From positions 40 through 64,039 of the IMG/VR virus record IMGVR_UViG_2923088545_000001: a stretch of DNA of 64,000 nt. One strand, 5' to 3'. Origin of the DNA: a virus (Duplodnaviria; Caudoviricetes). The notes under the pieces are model-generated. The model was not told the origin of the DNA. It searched no databases and worked only from the letters and a program-made list of their open reading frames with translations. A program made the position numbers and the translations under genes. Shown here piece after piece: positions 1 through 39,222 of the stretch. Every line of letters begins with the position of its first letter. Positions within the stretch are counted from its first letter, which is position 1.

Positions 1-1008
1 CGGACGTTACGTAAAACGTCGAGCAATCTCGATGTATTATTTATTCAATTTCGCGCGATAAAGAAATCGGAGGGGCGGGCTGAGGGTACGATAGAGCAAT
101 ACGAAAATAACTACGGATTCTTCATCGAATACCTCGATCGTCACAAAATAGCGCGGTCAATCAATGAAATAAACAGGGATGTAATTCGTAGATATATCGT
201 TTACATGAAGGATGAATGGGTGAAATTCGAGGACCACGCATTTAAGAAAGAGCGACATATGACAAAAGGGTTGGCGCCGTCTACTATTAATACCCGACTT
301 AAAACCTTGCGAGTGTTCTTTAAAACGCTCCACGACGAAGGGTTAATTGAGGCGAATCCTATGTACGGTATAAAGAACGTTAATGAGCCGGAAGAAGAGA
401 TCATTATATTAGATGAGGAAGAACTCCGGATATTATTTGCGGCTCCAAACCAACGTGATTACGCTGATTTTAGGGACTACGTGCTGATGAACGTATTATT
501 GGACGGAATGATGCGTATTTCTGAAGCGTTAGGTTTGCGTACAGAAAACTTCGATTTTAAAGGGTGTTCGTTGTATATACCGGCTCCTATCGCTAAAAAT
601 AGGAAAGCGCGCACAGTTCCCATCGAGTTTGGTACAGCGAAACTTTTAAACGAGTTAATTACCGAGAATAAAGCAGATTTTGATTCTGACTATTTATTTC
701 TCGCAAACTACGGAGAACCATTAACGCGTGATCATTTTAGAAAAAGGTTAGTAGAATACGCAAAGGAAGTCGGTATAAAGAAACGTGTACATCCGCACCT
801 TTTCCGTCACACAGCCGCAACAATGTACTTAGAGGCCGGAGGAGATATAAGACACCTTCAGATGTTACTAGGACATAGCGATTTGCGTATGGTTATGAGA
901 TATACACATCTATCGGGGAGATCATTAACGGAACAGCACGATAAATATTCCGCAATCAATGCCGTAAGAAAAAAACTGAATAAACAACGAAAACTTAAAA
1001 GAAGATGA
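1..1008 (+). CDS. int: Tyrosine integrase, 5' end outside window
   Basis: Frame 1 is open from base 1 (RTLRKTSSNLDVLF...) into the 205-1008 ORF; catalytic motifs MRISE, K(NRK), HLFRH, LGH, RY. Confidence 0.93.
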   Translation, partial: RTLRKTSSNLDVLFIQFRAIKKSEGRAEGTIEQYENNYGFFIEYLDRHKIARSINEINRDVIRRYIVYMKDEWVKFEDHAFKKERHMTKGLAPSTINTRLKTLRVFFKTLHDEGLIEANPMYGIKNVNEPEEEIIILDEEELRILFAAPNQRDYADFRDYVLMNVLLDGMMRISEALGLRTENFDFKGCSLYIPAPIAKNRKARTVPIEFGTAKLLNELITENKADFDSDYLFLANYGEPLTRDHFRKRLVEYAKEVGIKKRVHPHLFRHTAATMYLEAGGDIRHLQMLLGHSDLRMVMRYTHLSGRSLTEQHDKYSAINAVRKKLNKQRKLKRR

Positions 1009-1037
1009 CTCGGCCATTAGGTCGGGTTATTTTTTTT
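1008..1037 (+). terminator. Rho-independent terminator after integrase
   Basis: ACTCGGCC-ATTA-GGTCGGGT hairpin followed by a T tract. Confidence 0.85.
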
Positions 1038-1043
1038 GTTTCA

Positions 1044-1078
1044 AATGTCCCGATTTTGATCGATCACATGCGACTGTA
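1044..1078 (+). promoter_or_regulatory. Conserved bipartite motif, copy 1 (candidate phage sigma/activator promoter)
   Basis: AATGTCCCGATT-N9-CACATGCGACTGTA, identical arms at 12579 and 27181. Confidence 0.75.
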
Positions 1079-9518: not shown

Positions 9519-10520
9519 ATGTCGATCATTACGATCAATGGCGTTCCTACGGACGTCGACATACGCGAAGAATTAGAGCGATTCGAATGGGATAGGCCGA
9601 CTTGGCATTCTGACCGTTTAACGGCGGCAAGTCCTTTTCGCGACGATCGGACTCCTAGTTTTTACGTTTACTACGAAGACACTTCGACCGCAAAAGCCGG
9701 CTATTTCGGAGACAGCGGCACAGGCGAACGTGGCGGCTTTATTAAATTACTTGCGTTCCTACGAGAAGAAACCGAGGGAGAGACGTCTTATTACCTCGCC
9801 GAGACTTATGGTACTGGTGAAGGTGAAACGCGCTTGAAACTCCGTGTTCCACGTTTGAAAATCGTTGAGCCTAGACGTCCATTAGCCGAGACTTTACTGG
9901 ACGGCGTCAAGATCGGCCCTAATGCTTACTTAACTAATCGCGGCATAAGCGAAGAAATCCAGCGCAAAGCAGGCGTAGGCATGGTCGGACAAACGGTAGT
10001 GATACCGTGGCGGTTGCCTAATAAGCGACTGGCAAACATAAAATACCGATCGACCCGTAATAAAGCTTTTTGGTACGCTAAAGGAGGCTGGCCTATACGC
10101 GAGTTAATTTACGGCATAGAAACCGTTTATGCGGATCGCGCCAAAGTAGCGGTTCTAGCCGAGGCTGAAATCGATGCGCTTTCGTGGCGTACGGCAGGCT
10201 TTTGCGGCATTGCGACAGGCGGCAGTAAATTTTCCGACCAAAAGGCGGACATAATTGCGCAGTCACCGATCGAATATTTAATAGTAGTATCTGACAACGA
10301 TGAAGCCGGTGAGAAATTGCGGAAGGAGGTCGAGCTAAAGATGCGCGGCAAAGTCAGGCTTGCGCACGGTTATATAACGAAAGGGTACAAAGATGCGAAT
10401 GAATTATGGATAGCGGAAGGTGAGGACGCTCTTAAGCGAGTTGTTGATCGTGCGGAGGCGGTAAGTATTAATGTAAGGTTCGGGAATATCCGAACTTTCG
10501 GTCGGCGGAGGTTGTCTTAA
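9519..10520 (+). CDS. DNA primase (TOPRIM)
   Basis: SPFRDDRTPSF N-domain; AEAEIDALS, VSDNDEAG, KDANE. Confidence 0.9.
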   Translation: MSIITINGVPTDVDIREELERFEWDRPTWHSDRLTAASPFRDDRTPSFYVYYEDTSTAKAGYFGDSGTGERGGFIKLLAFLREETEGETSYYLAETYGTGEGETRLKLRVPRLKIVEPRRPLAETLLDGVKIGPNAYLTNRGISEEIQRKAGVGMVGQTVVIPWRLPNKRLANIKYRSTRNKAFWYAKGGWPIRELIYGIETVYADRAKVAVLAEAEIDALSWRTAGFCGIATGGSKFSDQKADIIAQSPIEYLIVVSDNDEAGEKLRKEVELKMRGKVRLAHGYITKGYKDANELWIAEGEDALKRVVDRAEAVSINVRFGNIRTFGRRRLS

Positions 10521-10750
10521 CCCTCCGTGTTGCTACCGGATAAAGGACGCCAATTATATAAGGCTTCGACCGGGCAGTCGAGGCAGCGCGCAATAGAATA
10601 CGCCATTTCAACGTTAGGGACGTTTCTAAGCGCTATATAATCGGAAAGCTGCGTTTTTGAGATTCCGACCATTTCTGCGAGTTGTATAAGCGTATAACCG
10701 CGTTTATAACACAGCTCCTTTATCCGGCAATCGACGACCGAATACTGCGA
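10517..10750 (-). CDS. XRE-family HTH regulator with atypical or mutated start codon
   Basis: TLIQLAEMVGISKTQLSDY...CPVEALY HTH; TGTGGTATAAT promoter and GGAGGTG RBS point to a TCG codon at 10750. Confidence 0.7.
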   Translation of the reverse strand, partial: SQYSVVDCRIKELCYKRGYTLIQLAEMVGISKTQLSDYIALRNVPNVEMAYSIARCLDCPVEALYNWRPLSGSNTEG

Positions 10751-10824
10751 GATAAACACCTCCGCAAAGCAAAATGCGTGCTTTACGAAGGAAATTATAC
10801 CACATAACCGCGCTGATTCCATCG

Positions 10825-11043
10825 TCATTCGGGCGGATTTGGAAGAATACGGACAACCTTTTCGATAGGCACGTCCAATTCGAGGCAAATACGTTCTATT
10901 ACACGGAACTCTAGGTTAGCGCCGTTCATCGCAGGCTCTTTCGTAATTTTAGCCTGAGTAGACGACGACATAAAATTACGCAAATAACTTTTGGATTTAC
11001 CTTGCTCTTTCAAAGTGTCAAAGAGCGGAGAGAAATCAACCAA
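10825..11043 (-). CDS. Cro/CI-type HTH regulator (candidate repressor), divergent from aimR
   Basis: DFSPLFDTL...IERICLELDVPIEKVV; GGAGGTG RBS before TTG 11043. Confidence 0.75.
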   Translation of the reverse strand: MVDFSPLFDTLKEQGKSKSYLRNFMSSSTQAKITKEPAMNGANLEFRVIERICLELDVPIEKVVRILPNPPE

Positions 11044-11080
11044 TTCAGACACCTCCAATAATTTATGGAAAATATTAAAA

Positions 11081-11172: not shown

Positions 11173-12360
11173 TTGGAATCGATTAGACGAGAATTATGTA
11201 GTTTGATTGAAGATAGTGATTTGAAGTATAAAGAGATCGCAAAAATCATTCGAGCAGATAAATCAACCATGACACACTTCCGGAACAATGGGACAATTAG
11301 TTTTAGGTCACTTGTAATCCTCGCACATTTCCTATTTCCGAATAACTCCAATAAAAAAATTACCGAATGGTGTTTGTCGATTCAAAAGACTGATAATAAT
11401 GATTACTTAAAACAAATGATGGAGTACGCAGCAGTCACAAGGAATACAGATTTATTAACAGAACTAATCAATACTCATGCGAAGACTTTCGGTCTACAAG
11501 ATCATGTGCAGATTTACCGAACTATATTGAAGTATATCAATGCGGAAATTAGTATCGACAGTATGATAGAGGAAATGAGCTTCTTCTCAAAAAGTAGGCA
11601 TAAAGAATTGCGAATATTATCTTCTATTTATATGTGTTATGGTTATTATGGAAAAGGTGAAATTCATTCAATCCTAGACAAAGCACCTTCAATCGGCGAT
11701 AGCATCAAATCGCTAGGCGACAAAAAGAAACTTTTCATTAAAGAGTGCTACGTTCATCGCTATGCTGAGTTGATGTCGCCTGTATTCTTACGATTGAATA
11801 ATCTAAGTGCAGCAAAGCACTACGCAACCATAATAAAGAATGGAAACATCTCTAATAAATCAGTTTCTGACGCGAATTATATTTTAGGGATGATCGCGAT
11901 GTCGAAAGGTAAGCGGGACGCTATGTCTTTGTTCGAAGAGAGTTATAAATACGCTTATAAAACAGGTGTTGAATTCGTTATCACAAACGCAAAAAACAAC
12001 TTCCTTCTTGCCGAAGCGTATGTTAATAGGAAAGACTCGGATAAACTTTCGGCATTATTAGCTCAATTAAAGGAGGTGATATACGAAGAGAGAAAAGACG
12101 ACTTTTACATATACCTCGAAAAATATAAAACAGGTAGTGTCGAAGGGTTATTCGAATGCCATCGTCAATTCCTTTTCAATTCAGACTTTTTCTTTTCAGC
12201 GTTGGTAATGAGAGATTTCAAAGACGCTGGGGTACCTACGTACCTAATTGATACATTTTCAAACTACAACTACACGAAAAAGGGGATGCTTTATTTTGAA
12301 GAAGATTTTATTGAGTGTTTTATTGATTTCAGTAATCGCGGTGTCAACTGTACAGCTTAA
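11173..12360 (+). CDS. aimR: Arbitrium peptide receptor (HTH plus TPR, RRNPP family)
   Basis: 395 aa; N-terminal HTH, EWCL..., MEYA motif like SPbeta AimR; followed by a secreted pro-peptide gene. Confidence 0.85.
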   Translation: MESIRRELCSLIEDSDLKYKEIAKIIRADKSTMTHFRNNGTISFRSLVILAHFLFPNNSNKKITEWCLSIQKTDNNDYLKQMMEYAAVTRNTDLLTELINTHAKTFGLQDHVQIYRTILKYINAEISIDSMIEEMSFFSKSRHKELRILSSIYMCYGYYGKGEIHSILDKAPSIGDSIKSLGDKKKLFIKECYVHRYAELMSPVFLRLNNLSAAKHYATIIKNGNISNKSVSDANYILGMIAMSKGKRDAMSLFEESYKYAYKTGVEFVITNAKNNFLLAEAYVNRKDSDKLSALLAQLKEVIYEERKDDFYIYLEKYKTGSVEGLFECHRQFLFNSDFFFSALVMRDFKDAGVPTYLIDTFSNYNYTKKGMLYFEEDFIECFIDFSNRGVNCTA

Positions 12361-12430
12361 CAAAGGGACAGAAGGGGCGCTAGAAGCCGATCAACCTTAC
12401 AAAACAGCAGACATTCGACCAGGAGGATAA
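12296..12430 (+). CDS. aimP: Arbitrium pro-peptide, 44 aa, mature peptide probably (A)DIRPGG
   Basis: MKKILLSVLLISVIAVSTVQL signal peptide; acidic linker; ends KTADIRPGG*; AAGGGG RBS; overlaps aimR 3' end by 65 bp. Confidence 0.85.
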   Translation: MKKILLSVLLISVIAVSTVQLNKGTEGALEADQPYKTADIRPGG

Positions 12431-12431
12431 C

Positions 12432-12456
12432 GAGGCCATTAGGCTTCTTTTTTTTT
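12432..12456 (+). terminator. Terminator after aimP
   Basis: GAGGCC-ATTA-GGCTTC plus long T tract. Confidence 0.8.
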
Positions 12457-12578
12457 GTTTAAAAACGAACATAGTTTAAAATCAAAATGTTTATTTAGTT
12501 TTTCAACTTTCAAAAAATACATAGTTGTATTTGGTACTATATGGTCATGGAAGAAAAATTATAAAAAACTTTAAATCA

Positions 12579-12613
12579 AATGTCCCGATTCATACGGACC
12601 ACATGCGACTGTA
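12579..12613 (+). promoter_or_regulatory. Conserved bipartite motif, copy 2 (upstream of sigma-like gene)
   Basis: AATGTCCCGATT-CATACGGAC-CACATGCGACTGTA. Confidence 0.75.
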
Positions 12614-12642
12614 TAAGTGTAAGGGACGGGAGGAGAAAGAAC

Positions 12643-13173
12643 TTGGATAAACAAAAATTTAATAGGCTACAATTGGCCGCAGATTACGGAGCGATTCCGT
12701 ATGTACAAAGAGAATCGCAACGAATCGCACACTTAGTTCCCGACGAAACATCGTTCGAGCAGCGGACCTTACTTTCGATAGGCTACTGGCTGGAACGATA
12801 CGAAGGCAATGGTCGCGATAAGAAAGCGTTGATTCAGCGCATTATCGTAAGGGAACGGAATAAGTACTTGAAGCAAACGAAGAGAGAAGCGGCTTTATCT
12901 ATAGAAGGAATGCGAGACAACGGCAATGTCTCGTGGGAACCTCACGACAGTTTGGCGACTATCGATGACGGTTTGATGGCAAAAGAAAAGATCGCTCTGT
13001 TGGCGCAGAACGATCCAAGAAAAACAATGATCTTACAGTTTTGGAGCGAAGGATGTACGAATATGGACGAAATCTCCAAGTTGTTGGCGCAACATTTAGG
13101 AGGAAATTTCGAAGCACATCGCAAGTTCATCCGCCGTTTCCGTTTACACTGCCAGCGCGAACTAACAGCATAA
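12643..13173 (+). CDS. Sigma-factor-like transcription activator, 176 aa
   Basis: GGGAGG RBS, TTG start; helical N-domain (IQRIIVRERNKYLKQ) and region-4-like C-domain (RKTMILQFWSEG...MDEISKLL). Confidence 0.55.
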   Translation: MDKQKFNRLQLAADYGAIPYVQRESQRIAHLVPDETSFEQRTLLSIGYWLERYEGNGRDKKALIQRIIVRERNKYLKQTKREAALSIEGMRDNGNVSWEPHDSLATIDDGLMAKEKIALLAQNDPRKTMILQFWSEGCTNMDEISKLLAQHLGGNFEAHRKFIRRFRLHCQRELTA

Positions 13174-26207: not shown

Positions 26208-27182
26208 TTGACGACATTCACAGCGGCCAACTGGTCGCAATCAGACGATAATTTCACGGCCATGTTCTACGATCAGAACGTCAAGCAGTTTTGGCTACCG
26301 GAGGAGATTTCGCTAAATGGCGACCTCCTCGCGTGGCACGAACTGAAGCCAGCCGAACGCGATACGTATATGAAAGTGCTCGCCGGCCTCACGCTGCTAG
26401 ATACGGAGCAAGGCAATACCGGCATGCCTGCGATCATGGCGCACGTAGACGGTCACCAACGCAAGGCCGTCCTTAATTTCATGGCGATGATGGAGAACGC
26501 GGTGCACGCGAAGTCCTATTCGAATATCTTTTTAACGCTTGCGCCTTCGGAAACTATTACGGCCGTTTTCGAATGGGTTAAAGAAAACCGTTATTTGCAG
26601 CGCAAAGCGAAGCTGATCACCGACCTTTATCGCGGTATTAAGGAAGGCGACGACATTTCGTTGTACAAAGCGATGGTGGCTTCGGTGTACCTCGAAAGTT
26701 TCCTATTCTACAGCGGCTTTTACTATCCGTTGTATTTCTACGGGCAGGGGCGCATGATGCAGAGCGGCGAGATTATCGGGCTTATCATTCGCGATGAAGC
26801 GATCCACGGCGTCTATGTCGGCTTGCTTGCGCAGGAAATTTATAATCGTCAAACGGACGACGTGAAGGCGGATGTTCACGAATGGGCGGTCGGGTTACTA
26901 GCGGAGCTTTACGAGAACGAAGTCGCATATACGGACGATGTGTATGGCGCGGTCGGCTTGGCGCATGACGTTAAGTCGTTTGTTCGATACAACGCGAATA
27001 AGGCACTTATGAACCTCGGCTTTGAGGCGTATTTTCCGGATGAACCGGTCAATCCGATCGTGATTAACGGGCTAAGTACGAAGACGAAATCGCATGACTT
27101 CTTCTCAATGCAAGGGAACGGATATAAAAAGGCGACGGTCGAGGCACTTAAAGACGAAGATTTTTATTTTCCTGCCGATTAA
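26208..27182 (+). CDS. nrdF: Class Ib ribonucleotide reductase beta subunit
   Basis: [34 protein letters not shown]. Confidence 0.97.
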
Positions 27183-27215
27183 TGTCCCGATTTCCGGCGC
27201 CCACATGCGACTGTA
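27181..27215 (+). promoter_or_regulatory. Conserved bipartite motif, copy 3
   Basis: AATGTCCCGATT-TCCGGCGCC-CACATGCGACTGTA(TAAGTG). Confidence 0.75.
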
Positions 27216-27246
27216 TAAGTGAAAGCAAAACGAAGGAGCTGATCTT

Positions 27247-27417
27247 ATGCGACAGACGATTAACCGAGGCGCTTTAATTGCAGCGTCAATCGTTCCGGCC
27301 TTTTGGTACGCACATGCAGCGGGCTTTTGGTGGTTCGTGGCGGCGGGTGTGCCGTTCTTACTATACGTAATGACGCTGCCGTTTGAGGACGGTAAGAAGG
27401 CGGAGGAGGGCGAGTAA
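27247..27417 (+). CDS. Small membrane protein (56 aa)
   Basis: AAGGAG RBS; hydrophobic. Confidence 0.6.
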   Translation: MRQTINRGALIAASIVPAFWYAHAAGFWWFVAAGVPFLLYVMTLPFEDGKKAEEGE

Positions 27418-31764: not shown

Positions 31765-32148
31765 TTGGGCGCATCGACGAACAAGCCCGACCAGCATCTA
31801 CGCTATGAAACGCAATATAAACTCGACGGACCAGACGGCGTCAAGGCGCTTTTGGCCGATTATACAACGCTCAGACAGCGGCGATTCTTAGGCGACATGG
31901 CTGCTTGCGATATTCTGATCGACCTGAACCGCGCCATCGAATTGGCGTCGCTGACCGGAAAGCAATACGAAGCCCTGCGCCTAGTATATTTCGATGACCT
32001 ATCGCAAACACAGGCGGGTGCGGCACTCGGCATTACGCAACAAGCCGTTGATTATGCGATTAACGCTGCGATAAATAAGATCGTCGACATCTACTACTAT
32101 TGGGCGTCACATGGCGAAGGTTACGGTTCAAAGAAAGGGGCGGTTTGA
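31765..32148 (+). CDS. Sigma-70 region-4-like HTH protein (candidate late regulator)
   Basis: LTGKQYEALRLVYFDDLSQTQAGAALGITQQAV. Confidence 0.8.
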   Translation: MGASTNKPDQHLRYETQYKLDGPDGVKALLADYTTLRQRRFLGDMAACDILIDLNRAIELASLTGKQYEALRLVYFDDLSQTQAGAALGITQQAVDYAINAAINKIVDIYYYWASHGEGYGSKKGAV

Positions 32149-38676: not shown

Positions 38677-39222
38677 CTAAATCGTGATGCTCTCGTATGC
38701 GACCGAAATCTCGTCGGCTGTGATTCCGATATATTTCAGCGTATCTTTTTCGGATGAATGACCGAGAATCGCCATGATCCGGTCGACTGCGATATTCATT
38801 TCGTACAGGCGATAGCCAAACGTTTTTCTAAGCGTGTGAGTACCGATGTTGCCGATCTTTTGAGCGATTTCGGCGCGTTCGGCGGCTTCGTTTAGAATGC
38901 GATAGGCTTGGACGCGGCTGATCGGCTTAGCGCCCTTTCGGCTGGCAAATACGTAGTCATCGTCAGCACCTTCGAGTTCATTGACGAGCTTTTTAACGGA
39001 CGCTGAGAACGTAATGACACGCGTTTTCTTGCGCTTGGCCTCGGTTATTTTAAGAGACGTTTGGCCGCGAAGATCGCCGACCTTAAGCGAAAGTAAATCG
39101 GAAATACGAAGTCCAAAAGCCGTCCCAAGTTGCAATAACAGACGGTCGCGCCCCGGTTTGAGGGCGTTTTTTAGTTTATTGAAATCGCGTTTACTTTTAA
39201 TCGGAAATACTTCGTTAGCCAT
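38677..39222 (-). CDS. Minimal tyrosine recombinase (catalytic domain only, 181 aa)
   Basis: GLRISD, K, HTLRK, LGH, KY catalytic set intact. Confidence 0.92.
   Translation of the reverse strand: MANEVFPIKSKRDFNKLKNALKPGRDRLLLQLGTAFGLRISDLLSLKVGDLRGQTSLKITEAKRKKTRVITFSASVKKLVNELEGADDDYVFASRKGAKPISRVQAYRILNEAAERAEIAQKIGNIGTHTLRKTFGYRLYEMNIAVDRIMAILGHSSEKDTLKYIGITADEISVAYESITI

Follow-up and report, generated by a model that had tools for sequence, protein, structure and literature searches.

Three copies of a two-part motif in a 64-kb provirus: probable phage-specific promoters, and a sigma-like protein as their candidate reader

The 64-kb provirus sequence analyzed here (IMG/VR record IMGVR_UViG_2923088545_000001, positions 40 to 64,039; "the window" below refers to this whole stretch) contains a two-part motif, AATGTCCCGATT-N9-CACATGCGACTGTA, in three copies (P1, P2, and P3). 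Judging by their placement and by the way in which they differ between phage lineages, these are very probably phage-specific promoters read by some phage-encoded factor. The reader is probably the product of the gene behind P2, a 176-aa protein referred to here as sigma1, which would be a self-activating, phage-encoded sigma factor similar to the extracytoplasmic function (ECF) type, with P1–P3 as its three cognate promoters; its sigma function and the transcription start sites are predictions. The initial annotation of this sequence had proposed early or middle promoters for a phage-encoded factor, which agrees with the directional sites, the lack of a sigma-A promoter, the absence of the motif from host chromosomes, and the concerted change of its arms. 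It had also suggested the gene at 12643 as the source of that factor, in keeping with a fold combining sigma domains 2 and 4 and a motif copy always in front of the gene, direct recognition being predicted. The main features are:

1044..1078, + strand: motif copy 1 (P1), an exact match with similarity extending over 1041-1091; same site in phage KLEB27-1 and IMG/VR relatives
1001..1038, + strand: intrinsic terminator of the integrase gene (hairpin 1001-1034 plus U run; RNA fold -19.1 kcal/mol, z = -5.8)
12579..12613, + strand: motif copy 2 (P2), an exact match 29 nt upstream of the sigma-like gene; proposed autoregulatory promoter
12643..13173, + strand: sigma1, 176-aa sigma-like protein (P0001), proposed motif reader; matches phrog_24888 (function not known) and has a sigma-like fold
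27181..27215, + strand: motif copy 3 (P3), an exact match overlapping the nrdF stop codon; conserved in relatives

A pattern scan of the window found exactly three matches, with no mismatches and all on the + strand (1044-1078, 12579-12613, and 27181-27215), so that the identical arms first noticed at these positions are confirmed; 100 dinucleotide shuffles of the window gave no match. No fourth copy was found in the window at up to three mismatches, and weaker candidates at up to nine mismatches and spacers of 8-10 nt were only noise. The spacer varies freely in sequence, as originally described, and is fixed in length at 9 nt, both in the window and at 22 distinct sites in related proviruses. 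At these 22 sites, from about a dozen proviruses of the pumilus group, ATGTCCCGA-N14-ATGCGACTGTA is an invariant core amid drifting spacers and flanks. The motif is followed by TAAGTG in copies 2 and 3, again as described, and by CTTATG in copy 1. Likeness among the copies reaches about 51 nt (1041-1091, 12576-12626, and 27178-27228), and the leader sequence TGAAAGCGAAAAT is common to copies 1 and 3. Two blocks at a fixed spacing, in a single orientation (on the coding strand) and upstream of genes, are the pattern expected of a promoter class.

The window is related to the Bacillus phage vB_BauS_KLEB27-1 (87.6% identity over 63% of the first 20 kb compared), which has three motif copies at the same three places. 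The four bases downstream of the motif (1079-1082, 12614-12617, 27216-27219, and in relatives) are TAAG or its reverse complement CTTA, and these forms swap between site positions in relatives, with CTTA at copy 3 of KLEB27-1 and TAAG at copy 3 of the window. At the copy-3 site of a further relative (L016, IMGVR_UViG_2728369406_000002), the spacer is nearly that of copy 2 (CATACGGTC vs. CATACGGAC), which suggests recombination or gene conversion between promoters of one phage.

Gene order in the window runs from the integrase through P1 and the replication genes to a pair of small leftward genes (including at least one helix-turn-helix, or HTH, regulator), aimR and aimP, a terminator, and then P2 and the 176-aa gene. 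All copies face their genes, 29-76 nt upstream of the ribosome-binding site. Copy 1 is followed by GGAGGTG and an ATG at 1154, beginning a rightward operon (1154 to ~10520) for replication proteins, DnaB helicase (8015), and primase (9519). After copy 2 come GGGAGGAG and a TTG at 12643, heading a run of the 176-aa sigma-like gene, DNA polymerase, RuvC, and NrdIEF. Copy 3 is followed by AAGGAG and an ATG at 27247, and the block to ~33911 includes dut, thyX, a methyltransferase, a second sigma gene (sigma2), and a MarR-like gene. Thus each copy does lie upstream of a strong ribosome-binding site and a rightward gene run, as first reported, but the supposed replication initiator behind copy 1 is a PD-(D/E)XK protein. 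In KLEB27-1, the annotated start of gp32 (L004 24655) is probably wrong, because it falls within motif copy 1.

The placement of the copies relative to terminators speaks for promoters. Copy 1 begins 6-10 nt past the strong integrase terminator, and copy 2 lies 130 nt past the aimP terminator. Where leaders are short, as in some relatives, nothing but the motif separates the integrase terminator from the ribosome-binding site; since it fills this gap, any promoter of the replication operon must be within it. A/T-rich tracts of the AAAAAGTTT kind are found directly upstream of the first arm in every lineage. A scan for the sigma-70 consensus found no + strand site in 900-1200 (around copy 1) or 27000-27300 (copy 3), and no sigma-A-type promoter (TTGACA-like and TATAAT-like elements 16-18 nt apart) lies over copy 2, in line with the earlier remark that the motif does not match sigma-A.

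The arm centers are 22 bp apart, as for -35 and -10 elements. Distant family members have TGCAAC, TGAACC, or TGTTAC in the upstream arm, resembling ECF -35 elements, and the region before sigma1 in 10 lineages aligns as TGT[CT][CGA]C, ~24 nt, TATA[TA]AGTGTA. Behind the second arm stands a hexamer (TATAAG, TACTTA, or TAGAAG) that has no T at -7; the gap from TGTCCC to TATAAG is 25 nt, and the spacing in the Bacillales genome G380 (below) is TGCAAC-N17-CCTAC. As to which bases would be the -35 and -10, the sequence is compatible with both CGAC and TATAAG as the -10. On the opposite strand at copy 2 there is a sigma-70-like site, GGGACA-17-TATAAT (12586-12558, - strand), in which reverse-complemented TGTCCC forms the -35. 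This site would be directed into aimP in antisense, is found at copy 2 only, and may be due to chance.

The strongest indication of a phage-encoded reader is the comparison of four lineages, each with its own private arms, identical at that lineage's two or three syntenic sites:

pumilus group: ATGTCCCGATT-N9-CACATGCGACTGTA, 3 sites
velezensis group: TGTCGCAAAA-N10-CCTACCCGTTATA, 3 site classes
Sporosarcina phage Lietuvens: TGTCCCAAAA-N10-AGTCCGCATATATAAT, 3 sites, 0 expected by chance
Bacillales genome G380: GGTGCAAC-N9-sCTTGTATCCTACrTAA, 2 sites

Every one of the four has one site upstream of its sigma1 homolog and one heading a helicase/primase operon. Prophages of B. velezensis and B. amyloliquefaciens, with a sigma1 57% identical to that of the window, have sites after the integrase terminator, upstream of sigma1, and upstream of a small gene that in the window follows nrdF. 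Lietuvens, a myovirus with a sigma1 homolog 36% identical, has exactly three, upstream of the replication operon, the sigma1 homolog, and the genes after DNA polymerase, and none in its structural half. The two G380 sites are upstream of sigma1 and of a DnaB/primase operon. Since host sigma factors are common to these hosts, the concerted change of the arms points to a phage-encoded reader, and a site that is always upstream of sigma1 in these four lineages, with arms that vary with the lineage, is what autoregulation would leave behind.

Five further proviruses of the pumilus group carry sigma1 and three motif copies each (one, possibly cut short, has two), all on the sigma1 strand, and no extra copies were found in these five, even in a 140-kb record. 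More widely, a lineage-specific version of the motif is found upstream of sigma1 in 10 of the 13 sigma1 lineages examined. In a prophage of B. paralicheniformis (L023/L033), a single copy was detected, the one upstream of sigma1; the contig stops short of the copy-1 position, copy 3 is absent, and the prophage may be a remnant.

The scan of host genomes and related prophages that had been recommended at the outset covered 49 species-representative genomes of the genus, and it found the motif confined to such prophages. The pumilus-type motif is present in four of them, with no copies elsewhere in the chromosome in any of the 49. Three of these four have exactly three copies, on one strand and within ~26 kb, and they are exactly the genomes with a sigma1 of at least 81% identity. 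The fourth (G437:C60:13047) is a draft genome with a single copy-3-type motif, in which sigma1 was not detected; this may be a fragmented or decayed prophage.

The case for sigma1 as the reader also draws on its predicted structure. AF2 models, with pLDDT 77 from 29 sequences and 90 from 98 sequences, have two helical domains joined by a low-confidence linker. Residues 8-83 of the predicted structure superpose on sigma-70 domain 2, the part of a sigma that contacts the beta-prime clamp helices and the -10 element (1sig, Z 7.5, root-mean-square deviation 2.2 A over 70 aa; also 3ugo, 4x8k, the SigE N-domain, and pro-sigmaK), and residues 105-176 on the -35-binding region 4 of SigH (3mzy), SigD (3vep), SigA (6ono), SigK (4nqw), and SigL (3hug), with Z of 5.5-6.1. 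Whole-chain structural matches include sigma-28, SigB, sigma-32, AlgU, and SigL. The best Foldseek matches are almost all sigma factors, mostly ECF (SigH, SigL, SigE, AlgU, BldN), at E of 0.04-1, values which are weak because the relative placement of the two domains differs. At the sequence level, a profile of 98 family members has weak colinear matches to SigF, SigW, and AlgU at E of 0.02-0.04, and when searched against individual genomes it matched a host sporulation sigma at 8e-9. Below-threshold Pfam matches among the 98 members include one Sigma70_ECF (3e-4), one Sigma70_r2 (1e-3), and five HTH_16; a sequence profile from a shallow alignment gave only spurious matches when compared with PDB. 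The family comprises ~174 clusters at 50% identity, and the KLEB27-1 authors annotated their homolog as a sigma factor.

In eight lineages, the downstream arm tracks residues 41-46, in a helix of the N-terminal domain:

residues 41-46 RTLLSI: downstream arm CACATGCGACTGTA
residues 41-46 ECYQ[AE]I: downstream arm CCTACCC..TATA, in four lineages with N-domains only 57-75% identical
residues 41-46 ECYHYI, ECYWRI, and RCYEKI: each with another, different downstream arm

Covariation was also looked for between the -35 arm (TGTCCC vs. TGTCGC) and the last helix (IRRF vs. IQRF), and does not hold.

In the proposed mechanism, host sigma-A would not be the reader; RNA polymerase together with the 176-aa protein, as a divergent two-domain ECF-like sigma, would read P1–P3. 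The C-terminal domain of sigma1 would bind the upstream arm (core TGTCCCGA) and the N-terminal domain the downstream arm (core ATGCGACTGTA), with transcription predicted to start a few bases beyond the downstream arm, near an invariant TG(A/T)AAG. P1 would drive the replication genes; P2 the sigma-like gene, DNA polymerase, and ribonucleotide reductase; and P3 nucleotide metabolism and the second sigma. Because P2 precedes the sigma gene, sigma1 would reinforce its own synthesis.

Several observations weigh against this assignment. P0001 itself has no Pfam match, whether to Sigma70_r2 or Sigma70_r4, and even with E values up to 10 allowed, the window as a whole yields no match to the Sigma70_r2 profile. 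The structural scores are intermediate (VIA Z 6-7.5, values often seen with helical proteins; Foldseek E 0.04-1), so the weight falls on the pattern, in which both domains match, in the right order, and the whole-chain matches are two-domain sigmas. The tracking of the downstream arm by residues 41-46 is only suggestive of direct recognition, because relatedness confounds it. Three of the 13 sigma1 lineages (a defective B. altitudinis element and two others) have no motif upstream. Co-occurrence of the motif and sigma1 is expected for anything sharing one mobile element, and restriction to prophages is thus not the same as recognition, since linkage on one element gives the same result. Paenibacillus phage Tripp, with a sigma1 homolog of 28-30% identity, has one motif-like site, AATGTTAC...GGTATATAAAT, upstream of the gene; a comparison of 21 gene-upstream regions turned up no repeat of it. 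With TGTCCC taken as the -35 and CGAC as an ECF-type -10, the two are separated by 19 nt, exceeding the gap of classical ECF promoters by 2-3 nt. Finally, lineages share a conserved TATAAT-like hexamer, located 23-25 nt after TGTCCC and perfect in Lietuvens, which would fit a sigma-A -10 with an activator near -41.

This last point is the basis of a different explanation, in which P1–P3 are sigma-A promoters without a -35, and a phage activator bound to the arms (at ~-41 and the spacer) recruits sigma-A to TATAAG or TATAAT; the activator could be the 176-aa protein, as a derivative of a sigma, or some other phage protein. Most lineages do have a TATAAG, TATAAT, TATATA, or TATAAA hexamer 23-25 nt after TGTC[CG]C, with a perfect TATAAT at all three Lietuvens sites, the spacing would place the upstream arm at the position of a class-II activator, and the sigma assignment of the 176-aa protein is based on weak scores. 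Still, the hexamer never has T at -7 in the two Bacillus lineages, copy-1-type sites have TACTTA, TAGAAG, or TAAAAG, and the consensus scan is empty at copies 1 and 3. The lineage-specific block would also have to occupy the spacer from -23 to -13, which is unusual for an activator, and a two-domain sigma fold suits a sigma more than an activator. We consider this explanation unlikely.

The motif might instead be the operator of an immunity repressor, which would occupy all three early promoters and so maintain lysogeny, with either the small HTH proteins (10517-11058) or a 181-aa integrase-like protein (38677-39222) as the repressor. A precedent is the SPbeta repeated element (SPBRE), found in about 10 promoter regions and bound by an integrase-fold repressor, MrpR (PMC10516654). 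The window phage and Lietuvens both keep small HTH genes beside sigma1 and a short integrase-like gene, and lineage-specific sequence is typical of immunity regions. An operator needs a promoter to block, though, and copies 1 and 3 are free of any overlapping sigma-A promoter; there is no dyad symmetry across lineages, the GTCCC/GCGAC pair of the pumilus version being lost in the velezensis and Lietuvens versions; and a single orientation at a fixed position relative to the ribosome-binding site is not required of a symmetric operator. As the full explanation this is improbable; it may hold alongside the promoter reading.

Slightly less probable again is sigma2 as the reader in place of the 176-aa protein. 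Apart from sigma2, no protein in the window has a Pfam sigma domain, and Lietuvens, KLEB27-1, and Tripp encode such a factor as well:

31765..32148, + strand: sigma2, 127 aa, within the P3 operon; candidate late-gene factor and rival reader (Pfam Sigma70_r4, E = 2.5e-6; phrog_3512 "sigma factor", E = 4e-24)

Its gene is, however, distal in the P3 operon, and no promoter of its own was seen before it, so P1–P3 would depend on a product of P3; no motif copy lies upstream of sigma2, and one lies invariably upstream of sigma1. The location of the gene just before the packaging and structural genes suits a late-gene factor of the RinA/ArpU type, which also counts against it as the reader; a promoter motif tying sigma2 to the late genes was looked for and not found.

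An RNA-level element, such as a nut-like antitermination or processing site, would suit three operon leaders and a conservation that runs into the leader (TGAAAGCGAAAAT, copies 1 and 3), and is very improbable because the three copies share no fold and do not exceed shuffled sequences in stability (z = +1.24, -0.14, and +0.96), with arms that are not mutually complementary, and copy 1 directly follows a terminator and so could not be transcribed from an upstream promoter.

With sigma1 as the preferred reader, the source of the first sigma1 molecules has to be considered, and here the neighboring arbitrium module may come in:

11173..12360, + strand: aimR, arbitrium receptor (Pfam AimR, E = 1e-17)
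12296..12430, + strand: aimP pro-peptide, 44 aa, ending KTADIRPGG (from the translation)
12432..12457, + strand: aimP terminator (terminator scan; RNA fold -9.1 kcal/mol, z = -2.65)
12532..12540, + strand: extended -10-like element TGGTACTAT, candidate sigma-A promoter for the first sigma1 transcripts (read from the sequence)

The aimP gene starts within the 3' end of aimR and encodes a signal-peptide-like N-terminus. Unlike in the published SPbeta-like and extended architectures, aimR has the small HTH genes on its upstream side, in divergent orientation. The order of AimR followed by sigma1 is kept in the B. velezensis, B. atrophaeus, B. licheniformis, and B. swezeyi lineages. The velezensis lineage has TGGTACGAT as the counterpart of TGGTACTAT, and the atrophaeus lineage has TGGTATGAT, with diverged flanks; the general form TGGTA[CT][TG]AT, ~45 nt upstream of copy 2, is conserved in three lineages (window 12532-12540; L025, about 9990; L059). 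This element is a candidate for an AimR-controlled sigma-A promoter of the sigma-like gene. Lietuvens has a TTGCAA-17-TATACT promoter upstream of its P2 equivalent. From the conserved -10-like element and the Lietuvens promoter, the sigma1 gene therefore seems to have both a host-type promoter and its own feedback promoter. The extended -10 promoter, lying past the aimP terminator and before P2, would supply the first sigma1 molecules, presumably under AimR control, and in the absence of the arbitrium peptide the entire early program would fire.

The motif itself does not look like an AimR operator. Two of the three copies are 11-15 kb from aimR, and no AimR gene is annotated in the Lietuvens record; AimR is not the reader, because Lietuvens carries the motif without it. 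Among the papers searched, none connects arbitrium with a sigma-like gene. A broader proposal, offered tentatively, is that lysis-lysogeny in widespread 60-65-kb temperate phages of the Bacillales is run by one self-amplifying sigma factor. AimR (or, where a phage lacks it, the small repressor next door) would control only the first sigma transcripts, after which the sigma would lock itself on from P2 and fire P1 and P3. This would be an undescribed arbitrium output and a new sigma family (~170 clusters), with promoter codes that differ by lineage and perhaps give related phages an immunity-like specificity toward one another.

A close parallel is SigN (ZpdN) of the B. subtilis plasmid pBS32, which has only weak similarity to known sigmas and was proven to be one biochemically (Burton et al., 2019, PMC6751061). 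Its gene was shown experimentally to be preceded by a regulated sigma-A promoter and a SigN-dependent one, giving positive feedback, and its regulon, triggered through LexA and DNA damage, does not extend beyond the element and takes in genes for DNA replication and metabolism (PMC6751061). The system proposed here, from sequence alone, is similar in being a sigma factor of a mobile element with sigma-A and self-dependent promoters, element-confined sites, and replication and metabolism genes. It differs in having an arbitrium module in the phage rather than a LexA/DNA-damage trigger, and in its promoters: by eye, the arms of TGTCCCGA-N14-ATGCGACTGTA are unrelated to the SigN consensus TTTACG(TTT)-N12-14-(A)GATATAA (Table 2 of PMC6751061). 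A tblastn search of plasmids with sigma1, at a cut-off of E = 10, gave only an unrelated match in Photobacterium (E = 2), the presence of pBS32 in that collection being unconfirmed; so far as this search goes, sigma1 is no near relative of SigN.

Phage-encoded Bacillus sigma factors with their own promoter classes include gp28 and gp33/34 of SPO1 and Xpf of PBSX, which act in a temporal cascade; SPO1 is lytic, and Xpf controls the late genes of a defective prophage. As in these, core polymerase would be redirected to bipartite promoters that are not of the sigma-A type, with a proposed cascade from sigma1 to sigma2. Unlike in these, the genes concerned would be early replication genes of a temperate phage, and the factor is in the position of aimX; the SPO1 consensus sequences are not known to be related. 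A phage sigma with private promoters and self-activation is of a known kind, while the sigma1 family and its promoter code are uncharacterized. To our knowledge, few phage sigmas with private promoters have been characterized, and the known ones are from lytic phages, defective prophages, or a plasmid.

In the extended arbitrium architecture, aimP is followed by aimX, a convergent aimC, and aimL (bioRxiv 10.1101/2025.11.23.689978). The architectures described so far have an RNA or a small antirepressor peptide as the downstream effector, and behind it a repressor gene in convergent orientation. The window resembles the SPbeta-like (AimR-AimP-AimX) and extended forms in the succession of aimR, aimP, terminator, and then a gene proposed here to promote lysis. 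It departs from them in the HTH genes upstream of aimR and in a downstream gene for a 176-aa sigma-like protein with its own promoter class. SPBRE of SPbeta is a single 15-bp block at about 10 sites overlapping sigma-A promoters and bound by MrpR (PMC10516654). Like SPBRE, the motif is a short sequence that recurs at several promoters of a single Bacillus prophage and is missing from the host; unlike it, the motif consists of two blocks (9-12 and 11-14 bp, 22 bp from center to center), at three sites with no overlap with a sigma-A promoter.

If the proposals above are correct, three promoters and a single unannotated protein family appear to carry the whole early program of a temperate, peptide-signaling phage, a concrete and testable wiring diagram for those arbitrium phages that fit neither published architecture. 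The sigma factors and their promoters would form a small orthogonal set, with at least 4-5 natural specificities, that could serve as genetic parts in Bacillus. A better annotation is also suggested for ~170 protein clusters now called hypothetical.

Further observations concern the distribution of these genes. A small, apparently defective element beside spoIVB in B. altitudinis (L064, VTEM01000014.1) has an integrase, AimR, a sigma1 homolog (65% identical), and tail genes, with no motif, no repeated promoter-like sequence, and no replication module. Siphovirus-type Bacillus prophages and Lietuvens have in common an early module of helicase, primase, small HTH genes, sigma1, DNA polymerase, Nrd, dut, and a second sigma; Lietuvens is a myovirus and encodes an actin-like protein. 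The regulatory and replication module apparently moves independently of virion type. The 181-aa integrase-like gene of the window (38677-39222, - strand), which encodes a catalytic domain only, is divergent from and just upstream of the large terminase gene, and the same arrangement is found in KLEB27-1 (gp114) and in the myovirus Lietuvens (ORF2).

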